Below, piece by piece: positions 47,192-64,000 of a stretch of 64,000 bases of DNA (positions within the stretch are counted from its first letter, which is position 1; each line of letters begins with the position of its first letter). Made by a program: the position numbers and the translations under genes. This stretch comes from Oscillospiraceae bacterium (GTDB lineage: Bacteria > Bacillota > Clostridia > Oscillospirales > Oscillospiraceae). Location of the stretch: contig JAFYNQ010000027.1 in the NCBI GenBank assembly GCA_017548065.1, positions 9,872 through 73,871 of the forward strand. Direction: 5' to 3'. The notes beneath the pieces were generated by a model, which ran no database searches, was not told where the DNA came from, and worked only from the letters and a program-made list of their open reading frames with translations.

Positions 47192-48142
47192 TCAGTGCTT
47201 TATGCTGTAGAGAATGCGCAGCGGCAAGGCTGCTTTTTTGGACAGCAGTGTTTCCTGCAGTCCCTGGGGCGGAAAACGGGAGAAGGCCTCCTGCAGCCGG
47301 GGGTTAGCGGCAATGGCACGGATCTGCTGTAAACGGTCTTTGTCGGGATACGCCGGAGATGCGATCTGCCGGATGGCAGCCAGTGCGCCACCCACAAGAA
47401 ACAGCTTTGTATAGGTAGGTTCAAAAGTGCGGTTCCAATAGTGGGACACTATCTTCATGGCAAGGTCGTAAGCCTTTTGGCTCTTTTCCCAAAGGTCGGG
47501 ATGGTAGCTGAATACGGCGCTGCCCTCCCGAACCAGGCGGTAGTACATAGCCCTTTTTAAATACTGAATATTTTCTGCTTTTCCCATGGCTTGCAGATTA
47601 AACAGCCGATCCTCGGACAGCTTAATCCCCAAGGGAAACCGAATATCCTGCAAAAGCTCCGCACGGTACAGACAGCGCCACACAGCGCCTGCCATATACC
47701 GTAGCAGGTGGGGGGTGATTTCCTTGTAAGAGAGAAGACAGCTTTCCGGCAGCTGGTCAATGGTGTCCGGCTGGGTGTTGCCGTCCGGCAGGACAGTTAC
47801 CGCATCCCACATAACCATGTCACAATTGCTTGTAGCCTGAAAGGCGGATTCATAGGTGTCTTCTGAAATGGTATCATCTGCATCCACAAAGCCGATAAAA
47901 CGGCCGGTGGCGGCATCCAGACCTGCGTTTCTTGCTGCAGAAACACCGCCGTTTTCCTGATGGATCACACGGATGCGACTGTCCTGGGTGGCCAGCCGGT
48001 CACAGAGATCAGCGGTGCCGTCTGTGGAGCCGTCATTGACCAGGATAATTTCCAGTTTCCGGTAGGTTTGGTTAAGCACAGAGCGGACACACCGCTCCAG
48101 GTGCTGCTCACCGTTGTAAACAGGTATGATAATACTGATCAT
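47192..48142 (-). CDS. Glycosyltransferase family 2
   Basis: IIPVYN, VNDGS, GVSAARN, FVDADD, SED. Confidence 0.9.
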   Translation of the reverse strand: MISIIIPVYNGEQHLERCVRSVLNQTYRKLEIILVNDGSTDGTADLCDRLATQDSRIRVIHQENGGVSAARNAGLDAATGRFIGFVDADDTISEDTYESAFQATSNCDMVMWDAVTVLPDGNTQPDTIDQLPESCLLSYKEITPHLLRYMAGAVWRCLYRAELLQDIRFPLGIKLSEDRLFNLQAMGKAENIQYLKRAMYYRLVREGSAVFSYHPDLWEKSQKAYDLAMKIVSHYWNRTFEPTYTKLFLVGGALAAIRQIASPAYPDKDRLQQIRAIAANPRLQEAFSRFPPQGLQETLLSKKAALPLRILYSIKH

Positions 48143-49248
48143 AATTCTTCCCTCAAGAGGTTGATTCTGCCCAGAAGAATACCCAGTATGGCGTAGGGCA
48201 GAATATTGGGGTTTGATGCCATTAGTCCCAGCTCAACAGATTGCTGCAGGACAATGACAGTGAAGGCGACCATAAGACCGGCGGTGCAGGGGTCTTTGCG
48301 ATAGGGTATGCCGTGTGCAAGACAAATGCGGAAGAGATTTGTCCAAAGGCTGTAGCCCACCAGACCGAAGGCGGTGAGGCAGGCAAGGGCGCTGTTATGC
48401 CAGTAGCCGGCATTGATGTTGCCGGTACCGAACCAGTGGTTGTTGCCCAGGAGGCGGAAACCCTCCACCCACACCTGGTCACGTCCGTTAAAGATGGGCT
48501 TGTTGAAATTCTCCATACTCCAGGCATCCAATGCGGCCAGATCCCATGCGGAGGTCAGGATCGCAACAAAGGCTGCGACGAACAGGGGGACAAGCAGCAT
48601 TACCAGCTGCATCCGTTGCGAGGCCAGCAGTCCACGGGTAGGGAGAATGCCGAAAAACAGAAGCAGCGTAACGGCAGCAGCCAGAATGCAGGAACGGGAG
48701 TTGGTCTGCCAGAACAGAATGCCGAATATAATACCGGCGCCGATGAGAATCAGCTTGCTGCGGACGTTGCGGATGCCAAAATAGGGAACAAGAAAAATCA
48801 GGAAGCTGTTAAGACCCACCATGGCAACGGAGTTGCCGTCCCAGCCCTTTAATATATCTGTGTAGGTATAGGCGGTGAGAACGACAAGACCCATGACGGC
48901 ATAGGCAAGACCGGTCAGAAGAAGAGCGCTGCGGGTGGGACGTGTTTCTGACAGAATGAACACCAGAAGATAGGTCCATAAGTAATCAAAGGCATCGGTT
49001 TGGCTGCCGTGGGACAAGGAGGAGCCGATAAAGACAACACCCATCAGCAGCACAGTGAAAAATTCCTGGCGATTTGTTCGCAGAGGTCGCTCCCGCCGTA
49101 TCTTACGCATGGCGCAAACCACAGCGACAGCAACACAAAGTAATTTTGTGATGCCCAAAACATTATAAGTTTGGCCAAGGCCGGTACCTTTTACCAGGTT
49201 CAGCACCCAAAGTACCACCATTGCCGCTGTGTACAAAACGGTTTCCAT
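48139..49248 (-). CDS. Wzy polymerase / O-antigen-ligase-like membrane protein
   Basis: Many TM segments; TNSRS, NGRDQVW..G, WHNS motifs typical of the Wzy_C/ligase superfamily. Confidence 0.7.
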   Translation of the reverse strand: METVLYTAAMVVLWVLNLVKGTGLGQTYNVLGITKLLCVAVAVVCAMRKIRRERPLRTNRQEFFTVLLMGVVFIGSSLSHGSQTDAFDYLWTYLLVFILSETRPTRSALLLTGLAYAVMGLVVLTAYTYTDILKGWDGNSVAMVGLNSFLIFLVPYFGIRNVRSKLILIGAGIIFGILFWQTNSRSCILAAAVTLLLFFGILPTRGLLASQRMQLVMLLVPLFVAAFVAILTSAWDLAALDAWSMENFNKPIFNGRDQVWVEGFRLLGNNHWFGTGNINAGYWHNSALACLTAFGLVGYSLWTNLFRICLAHGIPYRKDPCTAGLMVAFTVIVLQQSVELGLMASNPNILPYAILGILLGRINLLREEL

Positions 49249-49269
49249 ACGATCCCTTTCCTGTGTTTG

Positions 49270-50151
49270 TTATGATCTGTGTCGCCCATAGTGCAGCGCC
49301 ATGGCAATGCCCAGGGGCAGAGCGGCAGCAAGCAGCAGCCATCGCTTTCCTTTGTAGCGTCCCAGGGGACTGGGTGACAAAAGGGAAAAGGCGATGTAAC
49401 GATAGGCAGCGTCAAAGCGTATTTTCAAAGGCAGCGGCATATCCAGACGGTCTGCATAGAACCATTTCATGGACACGCTGTTGCGAAGCATAAGCTGGCG
49501 GAAGCTGTGAGAGTAGCCGCCCTCCTGGTATTCGCAGCTGCAAAGCGCCTGGGGGAGCAGCTTGCAGCGATGGGCTTCGTCGATCCGGTCATAGAGCCAG
49601 GTCTCCGGGAAGAAACGCTGCGCCGGCGGCTCCGGGATTTTATGGGGCTGCAAAAGCTCTGTGCGATATACCAGTGTGCGATCACCGCTGCAGCGGTGGA
49701 GATTGATCAGTTCTATAAGGGTGGTTTCTGAAAGTTCCTCCGGGAAGGGGTCGCCGATTTGCTTGCCGGTTTCCATGTTTTCCTTGTAGGCTATAATGCC
49801 TGCCGGCGTATCCTGGATGGCCGCCAGCAGTGCAGACAGCGCACCGGGCATCAGCACATCGTCGGAGTCAATGCACAGAAAATAGGCATGCTTTGCCTCC
49901 CGGATGCCCACATTCATGGCGGTATGCTTGCCACCGTTTTCCTTGTAGATATAACGGATCTTCAGTTGTCCCTCGCAAGTGAAGGCATCTACCACCTGCT
50001 TTGTATCGTCGGTGGAGCCGTCATCCACGATCAGCCACTCCAGCTCCGGGCAGCTTTGGCTTTTTAAACTCTCATACAGCCGACCCAGCAGCTTTGCCCG
50101 GTTATAGGTAGGTGTGAACACGGTGATTCCGGGAAGAAATGTATTATGCAA
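49270..50151 (-). CDS. Glycosyltransferase family 2
   Basis: FTPTYNR, VDDGSTD, NGGKH, IDSDD, FPE; probable TTG start 50151 after GAGGAG. Confidence 0.88.
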   Translation of the reverse strand: MHNTFLPGITVFTPTYNRAKLLGRLYESLKSQSCPELEWLIVDDGSTDDTKQVVDAFTCEGQLKIRYIYKENGGKHTAMNVGIREAKHAYFLCIDSDDVLMPGALSALLAAIQDTPAGIIAYKENMETGKQIGDPFPEELSETTLIELINLHRCSGDRTLVYRTELLQPHKIPEPPAQRFFPETWLYDRIDEAHRCKLLPQALCSCEYQEGGYSHSFRQLMLRNSVSMKWFYADRLDMPLPLKIRFDAAYRYIAFSLLSPSPLGRYKGKRWLLLAAALPLGIAMALHYGRHRS

Positions 50152-51199
50152 AATAAATCTCCTCAATTCTTTCCGCCCAGGCGGTACAGCTATACTGCGC
50201 TTTGATCTGTGCAGAGGTGTTTTCCAGTGCCTGAGAGGGGAAGCGGTTGTCGGTCAGCAGCTGTGCCATGCGATCTGCCAGCGCTTCCGGATTTTCTGTC
50301 TCAAAAAAGCATGCGGTATCAAAGTTCTTTGCCCATTGGTTGCCGGGGATGTCGCTGACAATGGCAGGCAGCTTCTTGTAAAGCGCCTCCAGCAGCGCAT
50401 AAGAAAAGCATTCTCTGCGGCTGGTGGACAGAAAAACCTTGGCGCTGTCATAGAATGCAGATACATTTTCAGAAGGCGCAAGGCGCACTGTGCAGCATGC
50501 CATGTCCGGGTAAGTGGCATCCAGGTATTCCCAGGTTTGGGGATAGCCTACAATGGCCAGCTTGAAGCTTCGTCCTGCCTTGTGAAGCATGCGGCAGGCA
50601 TCCATAAGGATATCCAGCCCTTTTGTTTTGTAAAAACCGCCAAAGACCAGGAAGTCATATTGCTTTGTCAGCGCTTCCCGGGAGACCAACCGTGAGCAAT
50701 CAATGCAGTTGTCTACGATGTGGACATTCTTTTCGGGAAAGCCCAGGGAAACGGTGTAGTCTGCGTAGTAGCGGTTGGGGGAGATCATGATGGCCTTTTT
50801 GCCGCAAACACCGTACTGAAAGCGGTTGATCAGCTGATGGGGCAAATCAATATTTTCCTCAAAGGAATCATGCAAATGCCAAAAAAGCTTTTGCTTTCTC
50901 GTTTTGGCAAAGGCGCATAAACAATCATAAAGCTCAAAATGGGAATGGATCATGTCCGCCTGTGCCATGGCAGCCTTTACCTGCCGGAAGGTGGCATAGG
51001 AGAAACGGTTCAGACCTGCAAAAAATACCTGCCGTGTCCGGGAAAGCTGCTGGCACCAGGGGGTTTCCGCAACGGTCTCCGGAAACAGATACATGGTTTC
51101 CACGCCACGTGCGGACAAACGCTGATCCAGCGCCAGGAGAGAGGCTATGAAGTTGCCGCTGTACTGTGCGGTATAGGCGCATACTTGCAGGAGCTTCAT
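50144..51199 (-). CDS. Glycosyltransferase family 4
   Basis: HSHF, KGLD, SRRECFSYALLEA (Ex7E), SDIPG. Confidence 0.85.
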   Translation of the reverse strand: MKLLQVCAYTAQYSGNFIASLLALDQRLSARGVETMYLFPETVAETPWCQQLSRTRQVFFAGLNRFSYATFRQVKAAMAQADMIHSHFELYDCLCAFAKTRKQKLFWHLHDSFEENIDLPHQLINRFQYGVCGKKAIMISPNRYYADYTVSLGFPEKNVHIVDNCIDCSRLVSREALTKQYDFLVFGGFYKTKGLDILMDACRMLHKAGRSFKLAIVGYPQTWEYLDATYPDMACCTVRLAPSENVSAFYDSAKVFLSTSRRECFSYALLEALYKKLPAIVSDIPGNQWAKNFDTACFFETENPEALADRMAQLLTDNRFPSQALENTSAQIKAQYSCTAWAERIEEIYFA

Positions 51200-51205
51200 G
51201 GTGTG

Positions 51206-51883
51206 TTATCCTTTCTTTCTGCCGAAGAGACGGCGGAAGGGGCGCAGCAGGCGGCTGCGCAGTACGAGTCCGGGCTTGACCCAGCTTTTTGCATACCAGT
51301 GGATGCTGACGGTGTTTTCTGTGATATTCAACCGCCCGGTAAGGTCGTCATAGGGGTTCATGTAATCTATGGGCAGGATCCTTGCACCGGCAACGGTCTG
51401 CTCAGTGCCGTCGGGAATCAGTCCCAGCTGCACCAGGGCAGCGGTGTTGTAATGGGGGCAGGCGGAAATGTCCGGGGGGACAATGGTATGGTATTGCTGC
51501 AGCATGGCCTCCACAGTCTCGTGGTGGGCAGCAGCGCCGAAGCCTTGTCCTGTGTTCACACAGCTGCTGTTTTCAAAGCTGTAGAAAGCGCTTTCTTCCA
51601 AAAGCTTATCCGGGGCGCAAAGCAGCTCCACATCGGTGTCCAGATAGATGCCGCCGTGCTCTGCCACCACCGCCAGCCGGACATAGTCGCTGAGAAATGC
51701 CCATTTGCCGTTTTCGTAGCAGTAGCGGACATAGGCGTTTTTCGTGAGATCAAAATTGGTCTCATCCCAGCGTTGCAGCTGATAATCCGGACAGTATTTT
51801 TTCCAGCTGGCAATGCAGCGCTGCGCCTTTTCCGGCAATGGTTTGCCGCCGAACCAGCAGTAATGTATGGTTTTTGGGATCAT
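51206..51883 (-). CDS. Glycosyltransferase family 32 (DxD sugar-binding)
   Basis: MIPKTIHYCWFGG, SDYVR, GGIYLDTDVE, IHWY..SW. Confidence 0.88.
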   Translation of the reverse strand: MIPKTIHYCWFGGKPLPEKAQRCIASWKKYCPDYQLQRWDETNFDLTKNAYVRYCYENGKWAFLSDYVRLAVVAEHGGIYLDTDVELLCAPDKLLEESAFYSFENSSCVNTGQGFGAAAHHETVEAMLQQYHTIVPPDISACPHYNTAALVQLGLIPDGTEQTVAGARILPIDYMNPYDDLTGRLNITENTVSIHWYAKSWVKPGLVLRSRLLRPFRRLFGRKKG

Positions 51884-51888
51884 AGCCA

Positions 51889-52686
51889 TCAGCTCCCGAG
51901 ACGTTTTTTGTGCAGTAAGGTGTAAAGGGGAGTGGGAAGAAGTCCCACCAGGATGGGGCGCAGTGTATATACATAGCACCAGACCGGCAACTTCAGAATC
52001 CGCACGGCTTTTGCCTTGACCCGTGCTTCGTTGATGCGGTAGCGGAATTTTCTCCGGGCGGTGGCGTTGCGGTCATCCCGCATGCGGTAAAGGGCTTCGG
52101 ACAGATTGATGCCCCGATGGCCGGCGTGATACAGCTTGATCCACAGATCATAATCCTCTACCCGGAGGAATTTCTTGTCATCGGTGTAGCCGCCAACGGA
52201 GAGCATGGCCTGCCGCCGCACCATACAGGGGGCATGGCAGAAGGGTGTGCCGTGGAGAAAGTCCCGGGGCTGAGGCTCAGAAATTGCTGTTCCCGTGGCC
52301 CAGGTGCCGTTTTCATCAAAATATTCCATGGGAGTGCTGACAATGGCGATCTCCGGCCGGCTTTCCAGCACCTGCAGCTCCTTCTCAAAGCGCTCCGGAA
52401 TGCACAGATCGTCACCGTCCATACGGGCGATGTAAGTGCCGGTGGCATGCTCCAGGCAGCGGTTCAGTGTGTAGTTGAGACCCATGTTTTGCGGATTTTG
52501 CAGCAGCTTTATTTTGTCGGGGTGCTGCTCACAAAAACGGGTCGCCACAGCATAGGTGTCATCGGTGGAGCCGTCATCGCAGAGGATCAGCTCCCAGTCT
52601 GTGACAGTCTGCGCAAGAATGCTTTCAATGGCATCGCCCAAAGTTTCTGCGCAGTTATAAATGCCCATCAATACGGAAATCTTCAT
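51889..52686 (-). CDS. Glycosyltransferase family 2
   Basis: ISVLMGIYN, CDDGSTD, ARMDGDD, EDYDLW. Confidence 0.9.
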   Translation of the reverse strand: MKISVLMGIYNCAETLGDAIESILAQTVTDWELILCDDGSTDDTYAVATRFCEQHPDKIKLLQNPQNMGLNYTLNRCLEHATGTYIARMDGDDLCIPERFEKELQVLESRPEIAIVSTPMEYFDENGTWATGTAISEPQPRDFLHGTPFCHAPCMVRRQAMLSVGGYTDDKKFLRVEDYDLWIKLYHAGHRGINLSEALYRMRDDRNATARRKFRYRINEARVKAKAVRILKLPVWCYVYTLRPILVGLLPTPLYTLLHKKRLGS

Positions 52687-53825
52687 AACGATTCTCCCAA
52701 CAGCTGCTTTCTGTCTTCCAGAATGTGGCGGCAAAGGGTTACCTGGTCAAAGTTCTCCCGGGCAAAAGCAATGCCGGCATCGCCCAGGGATTGCCGCAGT
52801 GCGGTGTCCTCCAGAAGCCGCAGCATTGCAGCCTGCAGCGCCGTGGCATCCTTTGCAGGCACCGTAAGGCCGGTAACGTCTTTTTTCATGGCATCTGTAG
52901 GACCGGGGATGTCCGTTACGATCACCGGTACACCCATGGCCTCTGCCTCAATGACGCCGGAGCCGAAGCCCTCACGGTAGCTGGGCAGCAGATACACATC
53001 CATGGCAGCCAAAAACTGCTCCACCTTGTCGGTGTAGCCGCACCAAAGGATGCGAGGCTCACTTTTTGCCCACTGATACAGCTCAGGCTGCAGAGATTCT
53101 GTCTTTTCCTCTCTGCCCACCAGCATAAGCACGGCATTTTCCGGCAGCTGCCGGAAGGCAGTAAACAGCTCGTTAATGCCCTTGTCGCCGGTGATGCGAC
53201 CCACAAAGCCGAACACCGTTGTCTCCGGGGCAATGCCATAATGCGCCCGAAGCTGCTGCCGCCAAAGTTCTTTTTGGTTGTGGTCAAATTTTGTCAGATT
53301 TACACCGCTGGCGCTGCCGTTCCATACCACACAGCCCTTCTCGGGGCGGTACAGACCCTCCTGGGCAGCAAAACGGAGGTTGCCGTAGCTGTCCGGGGAG
53401 ACCCGGGTGGCAAGGCTGCAAACCAGCTTTTCCACTGCCTTAAAGACCTTTCTTTTAAAGCCGGAGAAGCCTACGTAGGCAATGCCCCACTGGCAATACA
53501 GCCGTACCGGCACCCCGGCCAGCGCTGCCGCCAGGGAGGCATACAGCGATGCATTGGGGGTGGAGAACTGCACCAGGTCAAATTTTTCCTTGCGGAAAAT
53601 GTTATATAGCTTCCAGACAGCCCCAAGACCGCTGAGGCTGATGCCACGCTTCATGGCGACGGGGATATAACGCACACCCTCCGGCAGCTGGGAGACCAGG
53701 GTGCCATCCTCATCGCAGATCACAGTGATCTGCCAATCCGTCATCTTCACCAACTGTTGCAGCACCGGAAAAACAAAAGCCTGCAGCGTGATGGGGACGG
53801 TGGTTACAATACAAAGCGATTTCAT
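52683..53825 (-). CDS. Glycosyltransferase family 4
   Basis: FVGRITGDKG, LPSYREGFGSGVIEA, TDIPG. Confidence 0.9.
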   Translation of the reverse strand: MKSLCIVTTVPITLQAFVFPVLQQLVKMTDWQITVICDEDGTLVSQLPEGVRYIPVAMKRGISLSGLGAVWKLYNIFRKEKFDLVQFSTPNASLYASLAAALAGVPVRLYCQWGIAYVGFSGFKRKVFKAVEKLVCSLATRVSPDSYGNLRFAAQEGLYRPEKGCVVWNGSASGVNLTKFDHNQKELWRQQLRAHYGIAPETTVFGFVGRITGDKGINELFTAFRQLPENAVLMLVGREEKTESLQPELYQWAKSEPRILWCGYTDKVEQFLAAMDVYLLPSYREGFGSGVIEAEAMGVPVIVTDIPGPTDAMKKDVTGLTVPAKDATALQAAMLRLLEDTALRQSLGDAGIAFARENFDQVTLCRHILEDRKQLLGESL

Positions 53826-54430
53826 TTGATTCTCCTTGCAGGAACGCCCACGTAAGTACCGGACTCCGTGATGGTTCTTACGACAACGGCGCCTGCGCCT
53901 ATGACGGTATTTTCACATACGGATAGATTGTTGCTGATAACAGCGCCGATACCGACCCAGGTCTTTTGGCCGATGCAAACAGTGCCGGCGACCTTTGCGC
54001 CCACAGAGACATGGGCATAGTCAGCGATTCGGCAGTCATGCTCAATGATGGCGCCGGTGTTAAGGATGCAGTGTTGTCCTGCTTCAGCGCCGGAATTGAG
54101 GATGCAACCGGCCATAACGGCGCTGCCTGCGCCCACAGTGGCATCTGCGGCGATCACAGCCTGGGGGTGGATGGCAGTATACCAACGGACACCTTTCAGA
54201 GTTTCCACAATTCGCTGACGGATATCCTGATTGCCGATGGCAACGATCATGGGGGTGTCCAAATAATTTGCATAGTCACTGACAGGGCCTAACACGGGAG
54301 CGCCGACCCATTGTGTAATGTCTGTGCGGTCATCCAAAAAACCCAAAACACGGTCACCGACACACCGCACAATATCTGCCACAACTCTTCCGTAGCCGCT
54401 TGCGCCGATAATAATGACATTTTGATTCAT
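53822..54430 (-). CDS. PglD/NeuD-family sugar acetyltransferase
   Basis: IIGASG, VAIGN, IHP, IEHDC, hexapeptide repeats, GVPAR. Confidence 0.88.
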   Translation of the reverse strand: MNQNVIIIGASGYGRVVADIVRCVGDRVLGFLDDRTDITQWVGAPVLGPVSDYANYLDTPMIVAIGNQDIRQRIVETLKGVRWYTAIHPQAVIAADATVGAGSAVMAGCILNSGAEAGQHCILNTGAIIEHDCRIADYAHVSVGAKVAGTVCIGQKTWVGIGAVISNNLSVCENTVIGAGAVVVRTITESGTYVGVPARRIK

Positions 54431-54435
54431 AATGG

Positions 54436-55050
54436 TTACTCCTGCTTGTTGCTACCACGGAAGGGTTCCATGGTAGCATGTCCCTCAGCGCTGATGCCAT
54501 CCCGCTTCAGCACGTTCTTTACCGTAAGCAACAGAATTTTAATGTCCCCTAAAAGGGTGATGTTTTTGGTATATTCCACATCCATGCGGAAACGGTCTTC
54601 CCAGGCCAGCAGGTTGCGACCGTTCACCTGGGCAAGACCGGTCAGTCCCGGGCGCACATCGTGGCGGTGGCGCTGCTGCGCATTGTAAAGGGGCAAATAC
54701 TCCACCAGCAGGGGGCGAGGGCCTACCAGGGACATCTGTCCCAAAAAGATATTGATCAGCTCCGGCAGCTCATCCAGGGAGGAGGCACGGAGGAATTTTC
54801 CGTAACCGTTCAGCCGCCGGGCATCGGGCAGCAGCTTGCCGCTGCTGTCTTTTTCCATGGTCATGGTGCGGAACTTAATAAGCCGGAAGATCTTCTCATC
54901 CTTGCCGGGGCGCAGCTGTGTGAAGAAGGGATTTCCCTTCATGGCAACAGCGCCCACCAGGATCAGGATCAGCAGCACCGGGGACAGAACCAGGAGCGCC
55001 ACTGCGGAAATGCACAGATCCAGCACCCGTTTCCAAAATTTAGCATACAT
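54436..55050 (-). CDS. Initiating phosphoglycosyltransferase (PglC/EpsL-like)
   Basis: KR..D, KFRTM, SLDELP, SLVGPRP, RPGLTGLAQ. Confidence 0.92.
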   Translation of the reverse strand: MYAKFWKRVLDLCISAVALLVLSPVLLILILVGAVAMKGNPFFTQLRPGKDEKIFRLIKFRTMTMEKDSSGKLLPDARRLNGYGKFLRASSLDELPELINIFLGQMSLVGPRPLLVEYLPLYNAQQRHRHDVRPGLTGLAQVNGRNLLAWEDRFRMDVEYTKNITLLGDIKILLLTVKNVLKRDGISAEGHATMEPFRGSNKQE

Positions 55051-55051
55051 A

Positions 55052-56170
55052 TCAGAACGCCGCCTTTACAGTGTCAATTACATAGGAAAGATCTTCCTCG
55101 GTCATCTTGATATCCGAGGGCAGACACAGACCCCGTGCAAAAATATCCTCATCCACCGGCTGTTCGGCAGCAGAGACAAAGTCACAGTGGGCAAACACCG
55201 GCTGCATATGCATGGGCTTCCAGATGGGACGGCTCTCAATGTTGGCTTCGTTCAGCTTTTGCATCAGCGTCAGGGGGTCAACGCCGCAGCCGGCATCCAA
55301 AAGAATGCAGGAGAGCCAGAAATTGGGAACAGAGTCTGCAGCGTAGGGGTTCATGGTCAGGGGTAGACCACGGAAAGCTTCCTCATAGCGGCGATAGATC
55401 CGCTCCTTGGCATCCCGATGCTCCTGCAGATGGAGCAGCTGTCCTCTGCCGATGCCGGCAACGATGTTGGACATGCGGTAGTTGTAGCCCAGCTCCTTAT
55501 GCTCATACCAGGGGGTGTTTTCCCGGGACTGGGTGGCCCAGAACAGCGCCTTATTCCGCATTTCGGGAGACTTTGCCAGCAGCATGCCGCCGCCGGAGGT
55601 GGTGATGATCTTGTTGCCGTTAAAGCTCAGCGCCGCAAGCTGCCCAAAGGTACCGCACTGACGTCCTTTGTAGGTGGAAGACAGCGCCTCTGCGGCATCC
55701 TCAATAAGGATCACGTTGTGACGGCGGCAGATCTCCAAAATCTCGTCTGTTTTGGCAGGTGTGCCGTACAGATGCACCAGCACCACGGCTTTTACATTGG
55801 GATAGCGGCGGAAGGCCTCCTCCAGCGCCTGGGGATCCATGTTCCAGGTGTCACGCTCACTGTCCACAAACACCGGGACACCGCCTTCATACACCACGGG
55901 ATTGACCGTGGCGGCAAAGGTCATGTCGGAGCAAAGGACAACGTCGCCGGGACGGATGCCTGCCAGCTTCACTGCCAGATGCAGCGCTGCCGTGCCGGAG
56001 CAGAGCGCCAGCGCATGCATATCCTGCTGCAGAAAACGGACAACACCGGCTTCCAGCTCGTCGCAGTTGAAGCCCAAAGGTGCCACCCAGTTTCTGTCAA
56101 TGGCCTCCTGGATATATTGTGCCTCCTCGCCGTGGAGGGTGGGGGTAGCCAGTAAAATTCTTTTTTCCAT
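55052..56170 (-). CDS. DegT/DnrJ PLP aminotransferase (PglE/EpsN-like)
   Basis: SGTAALHLA, EDAAEALS, SFNGNKIITTSGGG, GYNYRMSN, CLPS; alternative GTG start 56179. Confidence 0.9.
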   Translation of the reverse strand: MEKRILLATPTLHGEEAQYIQEAIDRNWVAPLGFNCDELEAGVVRFLQQDMHALALCSGTAALHLAVKLAGIRPGDVVLCSDMTFAATVNPVVYEGGVPVFVDSERDTWNMDPQALEEAFRRYPNVKAVVLVHLYGTPAKTDEILEICRRHNVILIEDAAEALSSTYKGRQCGTFGQLAALSFNGNKIITTSGGGMLLAKSPEMRNKALFWATQSRENTPWYEHKELGYNYRMSNIVAGIGRGQLLHLQEHRDAKERIYRRYEEAFRGLPLTMNPYAADSVPNFWLSCILLDAGCGVDPLTLMQKLNEANIESRPIWKPMHMQPVFAHCDFVSAAEQPVDEDIFARGLCLPSDIKMTEEDLSYVIDTVKAAF

Positions 56171-56175
56171 AAAAC

Positions 56176-57330
56176 TCACGCTTCTATTATGCCGTACAGC
56201 TTCAAAAGCGCCAGCCGCTGCTTGCCAAGCTGCAGAGTCGCTGCGCTGTCACGGTTATTTTTATAAGTAAGGATGCGGCAAAGCCATGCCCATGGCAGCA
56301 GCCAGGGGTGCTTTTTCAAATAGGGGAAACGTCCCACAAGGATGTTTTTTGGGGGGAACAGCGCAGAAAGGCTGTGACCGGACTTCCGCCCGGCAGCAGC
56401 GGACAAGGTGATGTTGCTGCTGCGCTTTCGCACGTCGGAGCTGCCGCCGTAGACACCGGCTGCCATAAGGTCAGCCAGCAGAGGTTCCGGGTCGGTGTCT
56501 CTGTAAAAGGGGGCAGGCAGACACCAGTATTTTTCGCCCAAGGCAAACAGCGCGGCGGCAAACCGATCTGCCCGAAGCTGGACAAGCGTGTTTTCAATCA
56601 CGTCCCACTGAATGCTGTCACGGTAGTGAGCGGCAAACAGAACAATGTCGCAGACCTGGCGCACACCGAAGCCGCTGTGGAGAAAATGCTTGAAGGCGTG
56701 CAGCAACAGATACAGCATATGCTCTGTGGGGTGCAGGGTGGGAAGCCCGTGGCACACTGTGGCATGGGCCGCTGCATCTTCAAAAAAGCGGTTCCAGCTG
56801 CCGTAGGTCTGGGAGTCCGGGTCAAATAAATGCCGATGCAGCTCAAGACACAGCCCGGAGGCGGAACAGCGATAGGTGCGTTCAAAGCGGTCTTCCGGGT
56901 CGGCGGTTTCGTAGCCCAGGTCTTCCAGGGCATGGCAGCAGCGGAGAAAGTCGTCGCCGCCTATAAACAGATCCTCGTCGGAGGAGGGTCTGTGATCCTC
57001 CAGGGGATAAAGCTTGCGGCAGACATAGCCTTTGACGATCAGGGGTCGCAGATTTTCTTTTTCCAGCTGCCGGTACAGCGCCTCCAGCTGCTGGGTGCGT
57101 ACTGCCTGGGTCATGACCTGCTGCCGCACCATGGGAGCGGCTTTGGTAAGGGCGTCTCCCTGGGGTAGCTTGTAGGCAGCCTCATAAAACAGGGGCAGTA
57201 CATGATGGGCAGCGGCTTTTGCTGCCAGCTGCTGCAAAAATGAAGGGGTATAGGAAGGGTCATCCTGCAAAGGCTTGCCCGTCAGGGCAGCGCCCAGAAT
57301 CTGCATAAATGCCCGGCTCTCGTCTAACAT
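56176..57330 (-). CDS. Nucleotidyltransferase family protein (NTP_transf_5-like)
   Basis: IVKG...LYP...RPSSDEDL, LELH, LHAFKH, GVRQVCD; ATG 57330 after GGGAGG. Confidence 0.82.
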   Translation of the reverse strand: MLDESRAFMQILGAALTGKPLQDDPSYTPSFLQQLAAKAAAHHVLPLFYEAAYKLPQGDALTKAAPMVRQQVMTQAVRTQQLEALYRQLEKENLRPLIVKGYVCRKLYPLEDHRPSSDEDLFIGGDDFLRCCHALEDLGYETADPEDRFERTYRCSASGLCLELHRHLFDPDSQTYGSWNRFFEDAAAHATVCHGLPTLHPTEHMLYLLLHAFKHFLHSGFGVRQVCDIVLFAAHYRDSIQWDVIENTLVQLRADRFAAALFALGEKYWCLPAPFYRDTDPEPLLADLMAAGVYGGSSDVRKRSSNITLSAAAGRKSGHSLSALFPPKNILVGRFPYLKKHPWLLPWAWLCRILTYKNNRDSAATLQLGKQRLALLKLYGIIEA

Positions 57331-57367
57331 AGGCTGCCTCCCTTCGTAACCCGGATCTGAATACATT

Positions 57368-57396
57368 ATTATATCATAAAAATCGCTTTTTGGAAA
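57368..57396 (-). promoter_or_regulatory. Putative internal sigmaA promoter before the nucleotidyltransferase/glycan genes
   Basis: Minus strand TTTCCA-17 nt-TATAAT with TG extended -10 in the pqqD-NTase gap. Confidence 0.6.
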
Positions 57397-57405
57397 TGGT
57401 TTTGC

Positions 57406-57666
57406 TTACAGAATACCCAGCTTTTCCAGCGCCTCCAGGAAGGCGGAAATGTCTCTGCGTGCGGTGGCTTCGTCCACCTCGTATTCTGCCAGGACGGCAT
57501 CCACCAGCTGCTGAATATCTTCTGCCTGGGGCAGCAGATCCCAAAGAAAGCCGCCCAGCTCGTTAAGGACAAACAGTCCGTTGGCATCGTATACCGCAGA
57601 GCCGATGGGTACCAGCACCGTATCGCCGGATATGGTGCGCTTGATCAGTTCTTTTTTGAGCTGCAT
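57406..57666 (-). CDS. PqqD family RiPP recognition element (RRE)
   Basis: 86 aa; LVP, LNELGGFLWDLL, EYEVDEATARRDISAFLEAL PqqD pattern; ATG directly after rSAM stop. Confidence 0.9.
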   Translation of the reverse strand: MQLKKELIKRTISGDTVLVPIGSAVYDANGLFVLNELGGFLWDLLPQAEDIQQLVDAVLAEYEVDEATARRDISAFLEALEKLGIL

Positions 57667-58767
57667 TTACAGTTCCTCCTTGGCGAGCCGTACTGTCTCC
57701 TCCACCTGCTGACACAGATAGTGGGGGACTTGGTCAAAAGCGCCGGTTTCGGTGACACACACTGCAGCGCAAACGGGGCACACCGGCTTTTTGGGGCAGG
57801 TGGTGCAGGCGCTGGGCAGCCGAAGGGCGGCGGTGGCATTGCGAATGGTCTCCCAGGCGGCGGCAAAGCCTGCCTCCAGGGGATAGGCGATGGGACGGGG
57901 CATCATGCCGCAGGGCAGCATCTTGCCGTCCCAGGTGAGCCAGAAGCTGGTGCTGCCGGCACGGCAGCGGACACCGGGATCGGTCTCGGTGGAACACTCC
58001 GGCGCCAACTGGGCAAGGGCGGCGGTGTTTTCCATCCGTTTTTTAAACTCCTCCGGAGTAAACCGAAGACGGTCCCAGCGGAGACTTTCTTCTGCTGAAC
58101 GACAAGGGGTGAAGCGGTTGCCTGCCCCGTAGCTGTCCTCCTGCACACGTACCGGGGGATACATATAGCTGCTGGCTTTGATATTCACATCCAGCTCCAT
58201 GGCATCCCGGAAGATCTTCTCCAGATCCTGACAGTTGTAGGGGGTGATGGACAGATTCAGACTAACCTCAATACCTGCCTTTCGTAGGTTGGCGATGTTG
58301 CTGCGTACCCGGTCATACATGGGAAGACCGCACATTTTTTCGTAAGTCTCGTTGCAGCCGCCGTATAGGGAAATGTTAAAACGGGCAGGGGGATCTGCAA
58401 GGAATTTCTCTAAAATCTCCCCTTGGAGCATAGAACCGTTGGTGTTGACAGACACCATAAGTCCCAGCTTCTTCATGCCGCTGTAGATCTCAAAAAAGTC
58501 CTTCCGAACCAAAGGCTCGCCACCGGTGAGCAGCGCCACCAGCATACCGGCATCCCGGGCATCCCGGGCAAGCTGCAGCCACTGCTGGGCGGTCAGCTCT
58601 ATGCCTGCCTGCCGCTGCTGCTCCGGGGTCATGTGGATATAGCACATGGGGCAATTGAAATTGCACCGGGGCGTCAGCTCAAAAGTACCGGCAATGGGCA
58701 GACCCAATGCGCGACCCTTTTGATGCAGGTAGGTCATAATATGCGGTTCTGGGGCGGTTCTTTTCAT
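57667..58767 (-). CDS. Radical SAM/SPASM peptide maturase
   Basis: ELTPRCNFNCPMC (CxxxCxxC), LTGGEPL, NTNG; SPASM CRAG...DGKMLPC...CTTCPKKPVCPVCAAVC...C. Confidence 0.92.
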   Translation of the reverse strand: MKRTAPEPHIMTYLHQKGRALGLPIAGTFELTPRCNFNCPMCYIHMTPEQQRQAGIELTAQQWLQLARDARDAGMLVALLTGGEPLVRKDFFEIYSGMKKLGLMVSVNTNGSMLQGEILEKFLADPPARFNISLYGGCNETYEKMCGLPMYDRVRSNIANLRKAGIEVSLNLSITPYNCQDLEKIFRDAMELDVNIKASSYMYPPVRVQEDSYGAGNRFTPCRSAEESLRWDRLRFTPEEFKKRMENTAALAQLAPECSTETDPGVRCRAGSTSFWLTWDGKMLPCGMMPRPIAYPLEAGFAAAWETIRNATAALRLPSACTTCPKKPVCPVCAAVCVTETGAFDQVPHYLCQQVEETVRLAKEEL

Positions 58768-58773
58768 AGTAGC

Positions 58774-59631
58774 CTACTTTCTGATGCACTGCCAAAGGGC
58801 AGTCACAGCGGATTCGTCGGGGGTGCAGTCCAGCTGATACACCGGCACGGCGTTCAGCAGCTGCTCCAGGGTGTGGGAAACGGCCTCCAGGTCGTGCCGA
58901 TCCCAGGTGTTGACGCTGATGCCCTCCCATACACGGGCGAAGGCAGCGGCGCCGGTAAGCCGTGTGCAACGGGTTTGAGGCGCTTGGGTGAGATAGACGA
59001 TGGCAGACAAGGGCAGCGAGCAGCTTTCGCAAATACGGGAGCTGCCGGAGAAGGGGATGCCCTCTGCCAGGGCATTTCCTTCCGTCAGGCGCAGACAAGC
59101 ACGGTCACCGTTGCAGATGCGTGCACTGCGGTGTTTCTCCCAAAGGGCGGCCTGGGTGGATTTTCCCGTGCCGGAGGGAGCAGTGAATACAACGGTGCTG
59201 CCGCCGATGTCAATGAGAGAGCAGTGCAGCACAAAGCCCTCGGCCTGTGCCAGCAGATGCTCTGCGGCGCAGGCATTTAAAAGGGTCTTGGCAGTCATGC
59301 CCGTGGGAAAACGGGTCTGCAGCAGCTCCACAAAATGGTCTTTTCCCCGGTGGAAGCAGCACATGGCGGCATTTTCCCAAAGTCCTTCCTTGGCATGCAC
59401 ATACCGCTGCTGCCCCTGTTCTGCTTTGTAAACAGCGCCGTCGGGGAGCTTTGCCAGCAGCTTTCCCTCCGGGGGAGTCAGCTGCTGCGTATACTGAAAA
59501 AGAAAGCGGTGGGGGTCTTCTGCCGATGCTACCCGGAAGGGGGCAAGCACATCGTCGGGAAAGTCCTCCCCCTTCGGTGCAGTGACCGCCAGGCTGATGC
59601 CGGCAAAGCTGTAATACTTTTCCATACTCAT
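58774..59631 (-). CDS. HPr-kinase-related P-loop protein (putative peptide kinase)
   Basis: LHCS...FTAPSGTGKST (His + Walker A), NGDR, GIPFSGSS; ATGA overlap with upstream gene. Confidence 0.78.
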   Translation of the reverse strand: MSMEKYYSFAGISLAVTAPKGEDFPDDVLAPFRVASAEDPHRFLFQYTQQLTPPEGKLLAKLPDGAVYKAEQGQQRYVHAKEGLWENAAMCCFHRGKDHFVELLQTRFPTGMTAKTLLNACAAEHLLAQAEGFVLHCSLIDIGGSTVVFTAPSGTGKSTQAALWEKHRSARICNGDRACLRLTEGNALAEGIPFSGSSRICESCSLPLSAIVYLTQAPQTRCTRLTGAAAFARVWEGISVNTWDRHDLEAVSHTLEQLLNAVPVYQLDCTPDESAVTALWQCIRK

Positions 59632-60347
59632 TCCACCGTAATGAAGAGGATCTCGGTGTTGTTCTCGTGGATATGCTGACTTATCAGCTGAGAAATGGCA
59701 TTTCTCTTCATACCGCCGGTGATCCGCAGGCGGTAGGTGATGCCGCCGTAATAAATATCATTCTGCTTGTTTTTGTAGTAGACCACGATATCTCCGTCAA
59801 TATCCTTGCCGGAAATGTTGATCACATTCATGCCGCCGTCCAGCAGCTTTACAGACAAAAGGTCTTCCTGACGGCTCAGCTGCTTTGTGTAGAAAGCTGT
59901 GTTTTCCATCAGTGCATACTGGTAAGCTTCCGTGCTGTCATAGGGCAGACGGTTTGTCTCCAGCAGGATCACTGTCTCGCCGGGCAGCAACGCAGAAAGG
60001 GTAAAGCTTGCCTGCCCATCCTTTGTGGAAAGGGAGATGTTGGCATATTCCACCCCGGTGTCGCCCCGGTTGGTCACCCGGATCATCAGCACGCCGCTGA
60101 CCACCTGGTCGCTGCCGTCCTCCAGGAAAGGGCCGGTGTAGCTGCCCACCTCGGTGAGGAAAAGACCGTAGCCCAAATTCACAGACAGAGACTGGCTGTC
60201 AGTGACCCTGGCAGGGGCAGTCTGCTCGGTGGGTTCTGTGGTGTCGGGCGCCGGTGTTTTTTCGTTTTTCGGAAGCAGAAGCAGGACTATGACCAGTGCG
60301 ATCACAGCCAAAACAGCGGCTGCAATGTAGAAAATTTTCCGTTTCAT
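59628..60347 (-). CDS. Single-pass membrane-anchored protein of unknown function
   Basis: MKRK + hydrophobic helix, Pro/Thr/Glu linker, beta-rich soluble region; GAGG RBS. Confidence 0.7.
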   Translation of the reverse strand: MKRKIFYIAAAVLAVIALVIVLLLLPKNEKTPAPDTTEPTEQTAPARVTDSQSLSVNLGYGLFLTEVGSYTGPFLEDGSDQVVSGVLMIRVTNRGDTGVEYANISLSTKDGQASFTLSALLPGETVILLETNRLPYDSTEAYQYALMENTAFYTKQLSRQEDLLSVKLLDGGMNVINISGKDIDGDIVVYYKNKQNDIYYGGITYRLRITGGMKRNAISQLISQHIHENNTEILFITVE

Positions 60348-60402: not shown

Positions 60403-60663
60403 TCAGGAATTGAACAAATTATTATACTCTGTGGGCACGTGGTAGCAGAAGCCGTCCCAGGTGTCCGGTGTACCGCCGAAAGTATCGGGGGTAAAGAAGC
60501 AAGCGCTGACGGAGCTGTCAAAGATGTTGACGCCGCCGGAGGAGACCACGGCGCAGGTACCCCGTGTGGGGTTGTCCACAATGGCCTCGCAGCTGCCTGC
60601 GATGTTAGTGCTCGTGGCGAAGCTCTCAAAGAGAATGCGCGGAGCGTTATAGGGTTTTTTCAT
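60403..60663 (-). CDS. Putative RiPP precursor peptide (86 aa)
   Basis: AAGGAGG RBS; leader MKKPYNAPRI (YxxPxI); Cys25/37/55/73; C-terminal Ser; upstream of kinase, rSAM and RRE. Confidence 0.8.
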   Translation of the reverse strand: MKKPYNAPRILFESFATSTNIAGSCEAIVDNPTRGTCAVVSSGGVNIFDSSVSACFFTPDTFGGTPDTWDGFCYHVPTEYNNLFNS

Positions 60664-60677: not shown

Positions 60678-63600
60678 TTAAGCTTCGTTTGTATTTACCA
60701 GTAGTGTTGCCACCTGGGAGATGATCTGACTGTTCTTGGAGCCGATGATCACGCAGCGGTAACGGTAGCCGTTACGGGCGGCGGTGACGGTGACAGTCAG
60801 TGTGTCGGTATTGTAGCCTTCCATGGTGGTGTTGTGCCAGTTTTCGCCGTCACGGGAGTACTGCCACTGATACTTGATGCCTTCTGTCACGTTGGCAGCA
60901 GCGGTAAAGTATGCATTTCCGCCAACCACAGCAGTAGCATCCTGGGGCTGCTCCTCCAGGGTTAGGATGCGCAGTGTAGCAGCCTGGGTATACTCGGTGA
61001 CACCGGCAGCATTGGTGATGCGGCAGCGGTACAGGTAACCGTTACGGGCATCTGTTGCCGCAATAAGAACCGTGGGCTTTGTGCAGCCTTCCATAGCAGT
61101 ATCGATCCATTTTCCGCTACCGGGACGGCAGTACTGCCACTGATACTTCAGGCTTTCGCCCTCTGCAGCTGCGGTAAACTGCGCCTTGTCACCTGCGGCA
61201 ACCACCTGGTCCTTGGGCTGGGTTGTAATCTTCAGCTCTGTTTCCACAGCCAGCAGCGCCCAATCGGAGGTCAGCTTTGTGCCGTCTGCCAAAGTGACGA
61301 TGCAGCGGTACTTGTAGCCGTCACGTGCGCCGCCGGCGGTAACGGTCAGGGTGTCCGTCGTGCAACCGGTCAGCTCGGTGTTGTACCACTTGGTCAGCTT
61401 GCTGTACTGCCACTGATAGGTTGCGTTGGGATCCTGGGTCTCCACATGGAAGGAAACCGCAGTACCGGGGTAAGTAGTGACAGATTGGGGATGCTTTGTG
61501 ATGCAGTAGGGTTCAGGCTGTACGGTCACCAGAGGACTACCCACGGCAGTGTTTTCCTGGGGAACGCCCTTGCTCAAAGCACGAACCGTCAGGGCAGCGG
61601 CGCTTGCGCTCATGCGGAAGAGAGCGCGGCTGCTGGATTCCTCTGTGTAGGTAATCTTAATGTTGGTGACGGAGAGAACGCCGCTGCCTTCTGTGCCGGT
61701 GTTGGTGATGACGATAATGTCATCCTTCCAGCCGGTGATGTTGTAGTACATATCGGAGGCAGTGTTGAATTCTCTTGTCTTGGTGTTGTAGTAGTCGCCG
61801 GCTTCCACGCCGGTACCCTCAATGTCCTGGGCAGCGATGTTGGCCAAAGTAGCGAAAGCCTTCTTGCCGTCAGCGCTGCTGACAGCCATGTGAACAGAGG
61901 CAACATTGCTGTTCACCGTCAGACGGAATGCAACAGATTGACCGGGCGCAAGATACACTTCGTTGTTGGGGCCGTAGCTCTGATACTCGGAAATCTCTGC
62001 ATCGCCGCCCGGCTTACCATCAATGAACACAGCGCCTTCCAGCTCTGTAGCAGCGCCGTTGAAGGAATTTGCTCCCAGAATCAGGTTACGCAGTTCGTAG
62101 TATACGGGATAAGCTTCCTTATCCACAAGGTAGGCGTTCTGTGCGCTTTCGTCGATCAGGTTGCCGGTAATGCCGTCGGCGGCATCGTCTGTGCCGTACT
62201 GTGTGCCGGCAGGATCGTAAATGCGGATGGCATCCAGATACAGGTCATAGCCGTCATCGGTCGTCTGGTCAAACACGGGGGTGTAAGTGGCGATGATGGT
62301 CACGGTGTACTTGCCGTAAGGCAGACCCTTTGTCTTCATCACCGGCACCTGATACATGGCATTTGCCTGCTCCGGTGTGGGAACCCATACGTTCTCATGA
62401 ACGATGATGGTATCATTGATTTTCAGACCCTCGCCGTTTACATCGGGAAGCGTGGTAAGGGTAGCGCTTGTGGTTTCCAGGATCTCGGACAGTACCCACT
62501 GACGCTGACCCTGTTCGTTCAGTCGCAGGGTGTAAATCACATCCCGTGCTTCATAGATGTAGCCATAGTAGGTGTTGACAACACGGGCTTCCACAGTGTT
62601 GCCCTGGGCATCCTGCACCTGCACAGCCAGAAGACCGGTGGTGTTGCTGGTCATGCTGATAACATCAAAGCCGGTACCGATAAACTGGAAGGTAGCGGTG
62701 GCGTAGGAATCTGCGCCTACGTGAACCTTCTTTGCGTTGTCCAGGGAGAAGCTTGCAAAGTAGGCATAGTTGCCGTCATAGCCATAAATGTTGTTGGCAT
62801 CAGTCAGGCTGTAAGCGCCGGGACGGTCTTCGTCCTGAACATAGCCGCTGGCGTCATAGTTTTCTGTGGTGTCCTCCCAGGCAGTGCCGCTGCCGCCCAG
62901 CTGCAGGAAGGTTTCCTCATAGTAGACGGTGGTGGCAGGAATGACGGTGAGGTGGTCATAGTAATAACCGCCGTTTACGTCGCTTTCGTAGTCAACTGCA
63001 TAGGTGAACTTGTCCACACCGTTCATAGCCATGGTGGTGGGGGTGTAGCGCAGCTTGCCCTTGGCACGATCCAGCAGAATGTTGCCGAACTGACCGGGAT
63101 AGCTGTCGCCGAAACCCTCTGCCAGTGTGCTGCTGCCGGTAACAGTGTCCAGAGCCTCGGTGTAAGGACCGACGGCTGCCAGTGTGCCGGGTTCACCGAA
63201 CATGTCATTGGCCATAACATCAATGTCCACGGGCAGACCGTAGTCAATGACCACAGAGTCCGGGTTTGCCTGCACCTTCCACACAACGGCAAACCAAACA
63301 ACCGTGTGGGTGTAGTCATTGCCGAGGGAGTTGGTGTAAAGCTCGTTGGAGAAGGCGGCGGAGTCGCTCAAGTTAAACTGAGTAACGTAGGTACTCTGCA
63401 CAGGCTGGCCGCAGGTGATGGTCCAGTTACCGGTGGCATCGGAATAAATCTTGACCTGGTAGACGGCATCCTCGTCATACAGTGTGTAATACTTGGGAAG
63501 CACGTCATCCTGGATCGCCTTGACTTCCAGGGCGGGGATCTCTTCCGATGCGTTCAGATAGACTTCGCTGTAGAGAACCGGCTGGGTAACGGCGATCTTG

Positions 63601-64000
63601 TTGGCAAAAGAGCCGGTGGCGCCGGTGGTCTGGTTAACGATGATCTGTCCCTGCTCATTTACCAGGTAGAATGCATAGGAAACGTTGGCAGACTTCCAGG
63701 CAACGGTGGGAGAGGGGGGGCTCTGGACACAGTTGTCCTTGTCCAGATAGTTGGTGTAGTAGAGGCTTGCGTACTCGTTGGTGGCATAAGAGCCTGCTTC
63801 ACGTGTGCCCTCCATAGAACCGGTCAGGTACACATAGTAGCTCATAGCCAGCTCGGTACTTTGTACCGTACCCATCTTCCAGTAGAAGGTTTCAGAGGGG
63901 AGCAGTGTGCTGTCACCGCCGGTGGGGATATCCACGCCATCCAGGGAAACGGCAGTGGGATTGGTGTTGTACAGGAAAGTCAGTGCGTTGATAACGCCGC
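60678..64000 (-). CDS. Giant surface/secreted protein with C-terminal Ig-like repeats (5' end outside window)
   Basis: Frame open to window edge (GVINALTFLYNTNP...); cadherin/Big-like ANPDSVVIDYGLPVDIDVMAND; three C-terminal Ig repeats. Confidence 0.8.
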   Translation of the reverse strand, partial: GVINALTFLYNTNPTAVSLDGVDIPTGGDSTLLPSETFYWKMGTVQSTELAMSYYVYLTGSMEGTREAGSYATNEYASLYYTNYLDKDNCVQSPPSPTVAWKSANVSYAFYLVNEQGQIIVNQTTGATGSFANKIAVTQPVLYSEVYLNASEEIPALEVKAIQDDVLPKYYTLYDEDAVYQVKIYSDATGNWTITCGQPVQSTYVTQFNLSDSAAFSNELYTNSLGNDYTHTVVWFAVVWKVQANPDSVVIDYGLPVDIDVMANDMFGEPGTLAAVGPYTEALDTVTGSSTLAEGFGDSYPGQFGNILLDRAKGKLRYTPTTMAMNGVDKFTYAVDYESDVNGGYYYDHLTVIPATTVYYEETFLQLGGSGTAWEDTTENYDASGYVQDEDRPGAYSLTDANNIYGYDGNYAYFASFSLDNAKKVHVGADSYATATFQFIGTGFDVISMTSNTTGLLAVQVQDAQGNTVEARVVNTYYGYIYEARDVIYTLRLNEQGQRQWVLSEILETTSATLTTLPDVNGEGLKINDTIIVHENVWVPTPEQANAMYQVPVMKTKGLPYGKYTVTIIATYTPVFDQTTDDGYDLYLDAIRIYDPAGTQYGTDDAADGITGNLIDESAQNAYLVDKEAYPVYYELRNLILGANSFNGAATELEGAVFIDGKPGGDAEISEYQSYGPNNEVYLAPGQSVAFRLTVNSNVASVHMAVSSADGKKAFATLANIAAQDIEGTGVEAGDYYNTKTREFNTASDMYYNITGWKDDIIVITNTGTEGSGVLSVTNIKITYTEESSSRALFRMSASAAALTVRALSKGVPQENTAVGSPLVTVQPEPYCITKHPQSVTTYPGTAVSFHVETQDPNATYQWQYSKLTKWYNTELTGCTTDTLTVTAGGARDGYKYRCIVTLADGTKLTSDWALLAVETELKITTQPKDQVVAAGDKAQFTAAAEGESLKYQWQYCRPGSGKWIDTAMEGCTKPTVLIAATDARNGYLYRCRITNAAGVTEYTQAATLRILTLEEQPQDATAVVGGNAYFTAAANVTEGIKYQWQYSRDGENWHNTTMEGYNTDTLTVTVTAARNGYRYRCVIIGSKNSQIISQVATLLVNTNEA
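60690..61505 (-). repeat. Three tandem ~90-aa Ig-like repeats
   Basis: Repeated P....V......F.......YQWQY....W..T...G.....L......R(N/D)GY.YRC; boundaries approximate. Confidence 0.8.

Follow-up and report, generated by a model that had tools for sequence, protein, structure and literature searches.

A conserved C-terminal serine as predicted phosphorylation site in a Cys-rich, radical SAM-associated peptide family encoded within polysaccharide loci

Results

The stretch of DNA analysed here (the window, 64,000 nucleotides of contig JAFYNQ010000027.1 from the Oscillospiraceae assembly GCA_017548065.1) carries on its minus strand a cassette for a ribosomally synthesised peptide with post-translational modifications (RiPP) set within a surface polysaccharide locus. 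The genes follow one another in the order giant secreted protein (its 3' part), precursor peptide, membrane-anchored open reading frame (ORF), kinase, radical S-adenosylmethionine (SAM) enzyme, PqqD-like RiPP recognition element (RRE), nucleotidyltransferase (NTase) of the NTP_transf_5 family and polysaccharide genes, the last extending over about 15 kb. The precursor ends in a serine, Ser86, whose conservation exceeds chance, and the peptides of this type make up a genuine RiPP family that is large and apparently uncharacterised. Judging from the sequences, we consider it moderately likely that the pathway as a whole consists of the phosphorylation of Ser86, the cross-linking of a four-cysteine core by the radical SAM enzyme and, possibly, the joining of the phosphate by the NTase to a carbohydrate of the polysaccharide pathway.

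Conservation of the Precursor and of Its Terminal Serine

The precursor ORF of 86 amino acids (60403..60663, minus strand) has a YxxP leader, cysteines at positions 25, 37, 55 and 73 and a C-terminus of the form CYH..LFNS. It closes with ..NLFNS; the last residue, Ser86, noted in the first-pass annotation of this DNA, is the predicted phosphorylation site and is encoded by TCC (60406..60408, minus strand). The peptide matches no Pfam or NCBIfam family, and 16 divergent precursors are likewise without an NCBIfam family. In the alignment of the precursor with 77 homologues the residues Y5, P8, F15, C25, C37, C55, C73, Y74, H75, L83, F84 and S86 are invariant (78 of 78 rows), and the leader motif YxxPx6[FY] is found in 77 of 77 and 41 of 43 precursors. 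All 77 close homologues retain the terminal serine, 76 of them in an LFNS end.

A search with the full-length peptide could favour the tail, and three less biased tests of the terminal serine were therefore applied. Among 40 precursor loci fetched from genomes, many of them cut by contig ends, 38 encode a terminal Ser and the remaining two end in Ser-Tyr; where the match had stopped before the C-terminus (19 loci), Ser ends 18 of the peptides. A search that started from the kinase gave 17 loci with seven credible precursors, chosen by eye, that end in Ser (five), Ser-Tyr (one) and Ala (one), the other ten loci being cut off or having no such precursor. Finally, a profile of the leader only, made of the first 40 residues of the precursor and so blind to the C-terminus, retrieved, at 50% identity, 2105 representatives with an E cut-off of 0.001 and 180 with one of 1e-10, and a terminal Ser is present in 131 of its best 150 matches. 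Conservation in homologues had been proposed in the first-pass annotation as a check on its reading, and both the close relatives and the leader-profile matches bear it out. Of the 143 leader-profile matches of at least 70 residues, 128 end in Ser, nine have Ser second last, one ends in Thr and five look frameshifted; the tail consensus is [LVI]-F-x-S and all four cysteines are kept in 114. The best conserved other serine, a leader position, occurs in only 90 of these 143 sequences, and the background frequency of a terminal Ser among the long ORFs of this genome is 107/1751 (6.1%).

The nine variants with one residue past the serine suggest that the side chain rather than the free carboxyl group is what matters. 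Such a single residue (Tyr, Leu, Ala, Gln or Gly) follows the conserved serine in L058, L070, L121, P0241, P0266, P0299 and other members of the collection.

The Kinase

The kinase (285 amino acids; 58774..59631, minus strand) has the HPr-kinase/PEPCK fold and falls in Pfam family PF27840 (ScmC). Its model has a pLDDT of 92.9 and matches HPrK and PEPCK in Foldseek at E 1e-6 to 1e-5. His136, the GTGKST motif (154-159) and NGDR (174-177) in the place where HPr-type kinases usually have DD, all pointed out in the first-pass annotation, are confirmed. All 120 aligned kinases share NGDR, His136 and the Walker A lysine without exception. In a second alignment of 25 rows, with identities of 25-47%, H136, K157 and D176 do not vary, and the Walker A Ser/Thr is kept too. 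Gly175 aligns to the first and Asp176 to the second aspartate of the HPrK DD pair in a weak alignment (E 0.18-0.67, PDB sequence search); the second aspartate of HPrK, Asp179, is the named proton acceptor/donor (PMC9399212; this and the other papers cited are used in the parts that were available to us).

A quick tree of 82 kinases places this enzyme in a 48-row clade (SH-aLRT 99) that has only GD or ND at this place, and the precursors beside the clade end in Ser (37 of 40) or Ser-Tyr (three). As the variant is fixed across the clade and the His, Lys, Ser and second Asp are kept, GD is an old fixed variant and not a sign of decay, which speaks against the concern, raised when the motif was first noticed, that the change from DD to GD might mean inactivity. 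The possibility that the kinase is a decayed gene is rejected on the strength of the invariant motifs in both alignments. In our set a radical SAM gene lies near 49 of 59 GD-type kinases versus 5 of 17 of the DD type, nine GD-type kinases being without one. The predicted complex of the kinase with the precursor scored 0.00 and is given no weight either way.

The Radical SAM Enzyme, the RRE and Their Companions

The radical SAM gene (57667..58767, minus strand; PF04055, E 3.2e-24) encodes the motif C35-x3-C39-x2-C42 and a SPASM-like C-terminal cluster of cysteines (C268, C286, C321, C324, C330, C333, C337 and C352) that is matched weakly by PF13186 (E 0.012). Together with the four invariant cysteines of the precursor, the SPASM-type cysteines are compatible with a predicted Cys-to-carbon thioether. 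The adjacent gene (57406..57666, minus strand; PF05402, E 1.5e-18) encodes a predicted stand-alone leader-binding protein of the PqqD/RRE type, which matches the chains of TbiB1, PbaB1 (9x90) and LppB (9x8z) with E values from 4e-8 to 6e-6. The first-pass annotation had set its prediction at 56176..59631; that interval does include the kinase and the NTase, but the precursor lies outside it, beyond the 239-residue membrane ORF, and the radical SAM and PqqD/RRE genes that the interval also holds had played no part in the reasoning.

The membrane-anchored protein (59628..60347, minus strand; 239 amino acids), with an N-terminal hydrophobic helix and a conserved domain, is a regular member of the cassette. 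It belongs to no named Pfam family, and its Atlas neighbours are unnamed Bacillota clusters; it is a candidate receptor or display partner. Across the 40 fetched precursor loci the kinase is present in 34, the radical SAM gene in 31, the RRE in 26, the membrane protein in 24, the giant protein in 19 and the NTase in six.

The Nucleotidyltransferase

The NTase gene (56176..57366, minus strand; 396 amino acids) matches PF14907 at E 2.7e-41 (142 bits). The KG...R..DxD signature reported earlier is present (KG 112-113, R126..D130-E-D132) and invariant in seven of seven aligned NTases. The structural model falls among the Pol-beta-type nucleotidyltransferases (Z 11.4 to MenT1, 11.2 to ANT(2'')-Ia, 10.3 to LnuA and 7.3 to FKRP); Foldseek with this model gave no match at E < 0.001, and the sequence found none in the PDB. 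Translation probably starts at the second ATG (57330), which is preceded by GGGAGG, because the first ATG is only 2 bases below the -10 box of a sigma-70-like promoter match. This site, located between the RRE and NTase genes (57368..57396, minus strand), is a consensus match only (TTTCCA-17-TATAAT with the extended -10 TG, 10/12), from a scan that found four sites versus 4.4 expected. A general promoter in front of such NTases is unsupported, a like site standing ahead of 3 of 25 others versus 3.5% of random stretches. The NTase stop overlaps the start of the DegT gene (GTGA), and this overlap and the promoter-like site suggest that the NTase may be transcribed with the sugar genes. It may thus head the polysaccharide operon here, a position that would fit an enzyme joining both pathways and equally a plain polysaccharide enzyme.

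The association with the cassette was followed in 400 genomes of the family, 26 of which have the precursor; these are related, non-independent organisms, so that significance is overstated. A close kinase is found in 25 of the 26 precursor genomes, and the NTase in 22 of them (a close one in 17) versus 40 of the 374 genomes without precursor (close in nine). Kinase and NTase occur together in 55 genomes, the kinase alone in 16, the NTase alone in seven and neither in 322.

A role of the NTase as supplier of CDP-glycerol is unlikely because a TagD-like gene is present at 41548-41925 (102 bits, under the cut-off of 165). In several loci (L039:10555-11421, L040, L041, L046 and L071; three Pfam-confirmed) a gene for a calcineurin-like metallophosphoesterase adjoins the NTase and might encode a phosphodiesterase or phosphatase of the pathway. 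Lic-type genes, for a choline kinase, a cytidylyltransferase and a BCCT transporter, immediately precede the NTase in L083:5733-8974.

The Locus and Related Cassettes

Directly downstream of the NTase are Wzy-type surface polysaccharide genes (41548..56179, minus strand), which include a DegT aminotransferase, a priming sugar transferase, a PglD-like acetyltransferase, GT1, GT2 and GT32 glycosyltransferases and Wzy-like, flippase-like, TagF-like and TagD-like genes. The last two (41548-43091) end the operon, making it likely that a CDP-polyol donor is available. Outside the window, the same contig encodes Wzc, Wzz and CpsB as well as an S24/SpI-type peptidase and an ABC exporter, the peptidase and exporter lying 12-15 kb upstream of the cassette; the peptidase passes Pfam S24 and scores 29.3 over the whole of TIGR02228 against a cut-off of 51.85. 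With Wzc, Wzz and CpsB upstream and the glycosyltransferases downstream, the peptide genes sit between the regulatory and sugar-transfer halves of a Wzy-type locus.

The precursor is preceded by the gene of a secreted surface protein with Ig/VWA-like domains (60678..64000, minus strand, 3' part), which continues beyond the end of the window and has 2467 amino acids in the contig. Secreted proteins of 1500-2700 amino acids precede the precursor in 19 of the 40 loci (for example L001-L004 and L036-L045), with a GH20 domain in L037 and L039. Contigs of a possible source sequencing run, which are not independent evidence, span 56671-64000 and 55592-56695 in single pieces. Elsewhere in the window (7018-16425) two tandem proteins of 1545 and 1576 amino acids have C-terminal DUF4886 domains.

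The named relatives come from Oscillospiraceae, Lachnospiraceae and other Clostridia. The same genome has a second cassette at C38:4557-5461 (plus strand), with a surface protein, a short ORF with a YxxP leader that lacks Cys and ends in Tyr (E of only 0.18 with the leader profile), a DD-type kinase (NDDK), a membrane protein, Wzz and Wzc, and no radical SAM gene. This genome also encodes, at C39:1673-2438, C99:2774-3619 and C52:17830-18987, a second RRE accompanied by an S24 peptidase, a third kinase, again with NDDK, and, in another polysaccharide locus, a second NTP_transf_5 protein. In L096, L097 and L099, precursors resembling those of the LPP peptides described below (..FETxxS leader, DE-motif kinase) are stacked beside radical SAM cassettes with GD kinases, and two of these genomes also carry a third kinase, of the DD type.

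Discussion

In the pathway that we propose, the RRE would bind the YxxP leader and present the peptide to the modifying enzymes. The kinase would then add one or more phosphates to Ser86, and on the conservation of both partners we judge this terminal phosphorylation likely. The radical SAM enzyme is expected to form thioether bridges within the four-cysteine core, and that it links Cys residues appears fairly likely. The SpI-type peptidase would remove the leader, probably after I-A-G, a site guessed from the signal-peptidase rule, and the ABC transporter would export the product. The NTase might extend the phosphoserine, most simply by a nucleotidylation that would enable a phosphodiester link to a sugar or polyol. 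That it acts on the phosphopeptide at all is plausible but somewhat doubtful, and its product may be a nucleotide, a hexose or a polysaccharide link.

Several observations weigh against this pathway. The characterised kinases of the type all have two aspartates; PsmK is dead as D158A/D159A (PMC6993621, PMC9266682), D186A and D187A both matter in BsfK (PMC10368454), and an assayed GD enzyme was not found in the literature reviewed. Outside the 48-row clade the neighbours of GD-type kinases include precursors with Lys, Ile or Ala as the last residue (L092, L099, L106 and L124), and the site can therefore not be read from the motif by itself. LppK (PMC13381572) and BsfK (PMC10368454) phosphorylate Ser3 of the core and not the C-terminus. 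As to the second step, the fetched stretches of just 6 of the 40 precursor loci include the NTase, 4 of the 26 precursor genomes (completeness 79-97%) lack it, PsmN is without activity in vitro (PMC6993621, PMC9266682, PMC11912497), and deletion of lppN in B. subtilis has no effect (PMC13381572).

The silent lppN deletion also fits an alternative that we hold to be unlikely, in which the terminal serine is phosphorylated but the NTase serves the polysaccharide and has no action on the peptide. Here the gene lies downstream of a promoter-like site of its own, and its end overlaps the start of DegT. In our reading of the loci of 26 close NTase homologues, for which 89 of the 168 neighbours picked were scanned, clear polysaccharide genes lie within about 6 kb in 15, the assignment being ambiguous in three and negative in eight, and 11 of the 26 are within about 11 kb of a kinase. 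Against a plain polysaccharide enzyme speak the presence of the kinase in 55 of 62 NTase genomes and of the NTase in just 7 of 329 kinase-free genomes, and the runs of kinase, RRE, NTase and ABC genes without nearby polysaccharide genes (L076-L078). Moreover, the locus already has its TagD-like cytidylyltransferase, and PsmN does alter the mass of its peptide (PMC6993621, PMC9266682).

The site of phosphorylation could instead be a Ser/Thr near the leader-core junction, as in the LPP and Bsf systems, the terminal serine being kept for another reason such as recognition. The machinery and context match LPP, whose kinase modifies Ser3 (PMC13381572); F15-A-T17 resembles the LPP F-E-T cleavage motif, with S18, T19 and S24 available; of 143 sequences, 90 have a serine 7 residues ahead of the first Cys and 61 have one 5 residues ahead of it, and the outer branches L106 and L124 have a junction serine without a terminal one. 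We nevertheless find this quite improbable, as the best junction position reaches 63% versus 90-96% for the terminal Ser, the LPP leader motif Px9Fx[T/A] is absent from all precursors of both sets (0 of 77 and 0 of 43), and LPP C-termini are variable (PMC13381572) where the precursors here end in [LVI]-F-x-S. A role of the GD protein as a scaffold that binds nucleotide without catalysis and keeps the tail in place for the radical SAM enzyme, Ser86 being the direct substrate of that enzyme or of the NTase, is also improbable. The clade-wide loss of the first aspartate and the frequent neighbourhood of radical SAM genes to GD-type kinases would fit such a role, and mycofactocin-type enzymes do modify a C-terminal residue. 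It is countered by the invariance of the His, the Walker A Lys-Ser/Thr and the proton-acceptor Asp over 25-47% identity, by N174, which is invariant in all 120 kinases and could replace the lost Asp, and by the nine GD-type kinases without a nearby radical SAM gene.

Phosphorylation of Ser86 in a cross-linked peptide is our preferred reading. A more far-reaching idea, speculative and decidedly unlikely as it stands, is that the pair of kinase and NTase is an anchoring module. The NTase would convert the phosphoserine at the end of the peptide into an activated nucleotide diphosphate. A phosphodiester would then tie the cross-linked peptide to the capsular polysaccharide, and the RiPP would be displayed covalently on the cell surface. 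If so, the hexose and dihexose found on pseudomycoidin made in E. coli would have taken the place of the true acceptor, the lppN deletion in B. subtilis would have been silent for want of an acceptor, and the placement of lasso, LPP and radical SAM cassettes in capsule loci would be explained at once. The function of PsmN/LppN-type NTases and the reason for the capsule-locus placement are open questions in the literature (PMC6993621, PMC13381572), and an NTase that links peptide to polysaccharide would represent a new way to anchor a RiPP on the cell surface. Irrespective of this, gut Clostridia offer in this family a natural test set of large size, with a single site that is sharply predicted, a kinase in which a supposedly essential Asp is swapped and, for the same pair of tailoring enzymes, a third ring chemistry.

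Comparison with Known Systems

Functional precedents come from lasso peptides. Lasso precursors receive a phosphate on their terminal Ser from PadeK, ThcoK and PsmK, and the addition of one or two hexoses to this phosphate depends on PsmN, the true reaction of which is left open (PMC6993621, PMC9266682, PMC11912497). Our cassette shares with paeninodin and pseudomycoidin the terminal Ser, the HPr-type kinase, the DxD nucleotidyltransferase, the stand-alone RRE and the ABC exporter (PMC6993621, PMC9266682); it differs in the GD for DD of its kinase, in a YxxP instead of WxxP leader and in an 86-residue Cys-rich precursor accompanied by a radical SAM enzyme. The HPrK/PEPCK fold is common to the kinases, but the His-Lys-Asp-Asp set is incomplete here, the first Asp being Gly in 120 of 120 sequences. 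The likeness to PsmN is one of family and motif: both are NTP_transf_5 proteins with a metal-binding DxD (D130/D132, invariant). Neither a lasso cyclase nor a B2 peptidase is encoded among the scanned ORFs of the cassette and its flanks, the whole genome not having been searched for them.

The LPP peptides (LppA/K/B/S/D/N; Popov et al. 2026, PMC13381572) are non-lasso peptides encoded in capsule loci and form the closest characterised system; they share with ours the YxxP leader, a discrete RRE, a kinase of the HprK-like type, an NTP transferase, an SpI-type peptidase, an MsbA-like exporter and the capsule locus itself; all five LPP core gene types occur on our contig within about 19 kb. However, the LPP leader has Px9Fx[T/A] (YxxPxVLxHQxIxFETxxS) where we find YxxPx6F, and the core Ser3 and variable C-terminus of LPP contrast with the absence of a conserved junction Ser and the invariant terminal Ser here, a difference at the level of sequence. 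LPPs are linear, whereas the present cassettes have a radical SAM/SPASM enzyme (31 of 40 loci) and four Cys, and they also include the membrane protein and the giant surface protein. The word "radical" does not occur in the LPP main text as available and appears once in the supplement, as a matrix column head (PMC13381572).

Likeness to two radical SAM families is more partial. SynChlorMet, a bioinformatic family (TIGR04248-04251; PF27840 ScmC), likewise combines the ScmC kinase with radical SAM/SPASM and PqqD proteins, but our scores are far under the TIGR cut-offs (24.5/125 for the kinase with TIGR04249, and 21.3/100, 67/400 and 59.2/400) and there is a single radical SAM gene, not two. Sactipeptides and ranthipeptides have the Cys-rich precursor, the SPASM-type enzyme and the discrete RRE (PMC10288494), but the StsB model gives 76.7 bits, far under its cut-off of 625, and the words "kinase" and "nucleotidyltransferase" are absent from the available text of that paper. 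Literature searches, from which subscription journals were mostly uncovered, found no description of a RiPP that combines radical SAM enzyme, kinase, NTase and terminal Ser.

The first-pass annotation had suggested that the two-step chemistry of paeninodin and pseudomycoidin operates here on a non-lasso scaffold. The part concerning the serine and its kinase finds good support in their conservation; the NTase is more loosely tied to the precursor than that suggestion implied, and the concept itself is already embodied in LPP. The system would be a variant of chemistry already known from lasso and LPP peptides, and what is new is the pairing of this chemistry with a radical SAM, Cys-rich scaffold and a terminal Ser: a hybrid of LPP-type processing and context, a paeninodin-type tail and a radical SAM scaffold.

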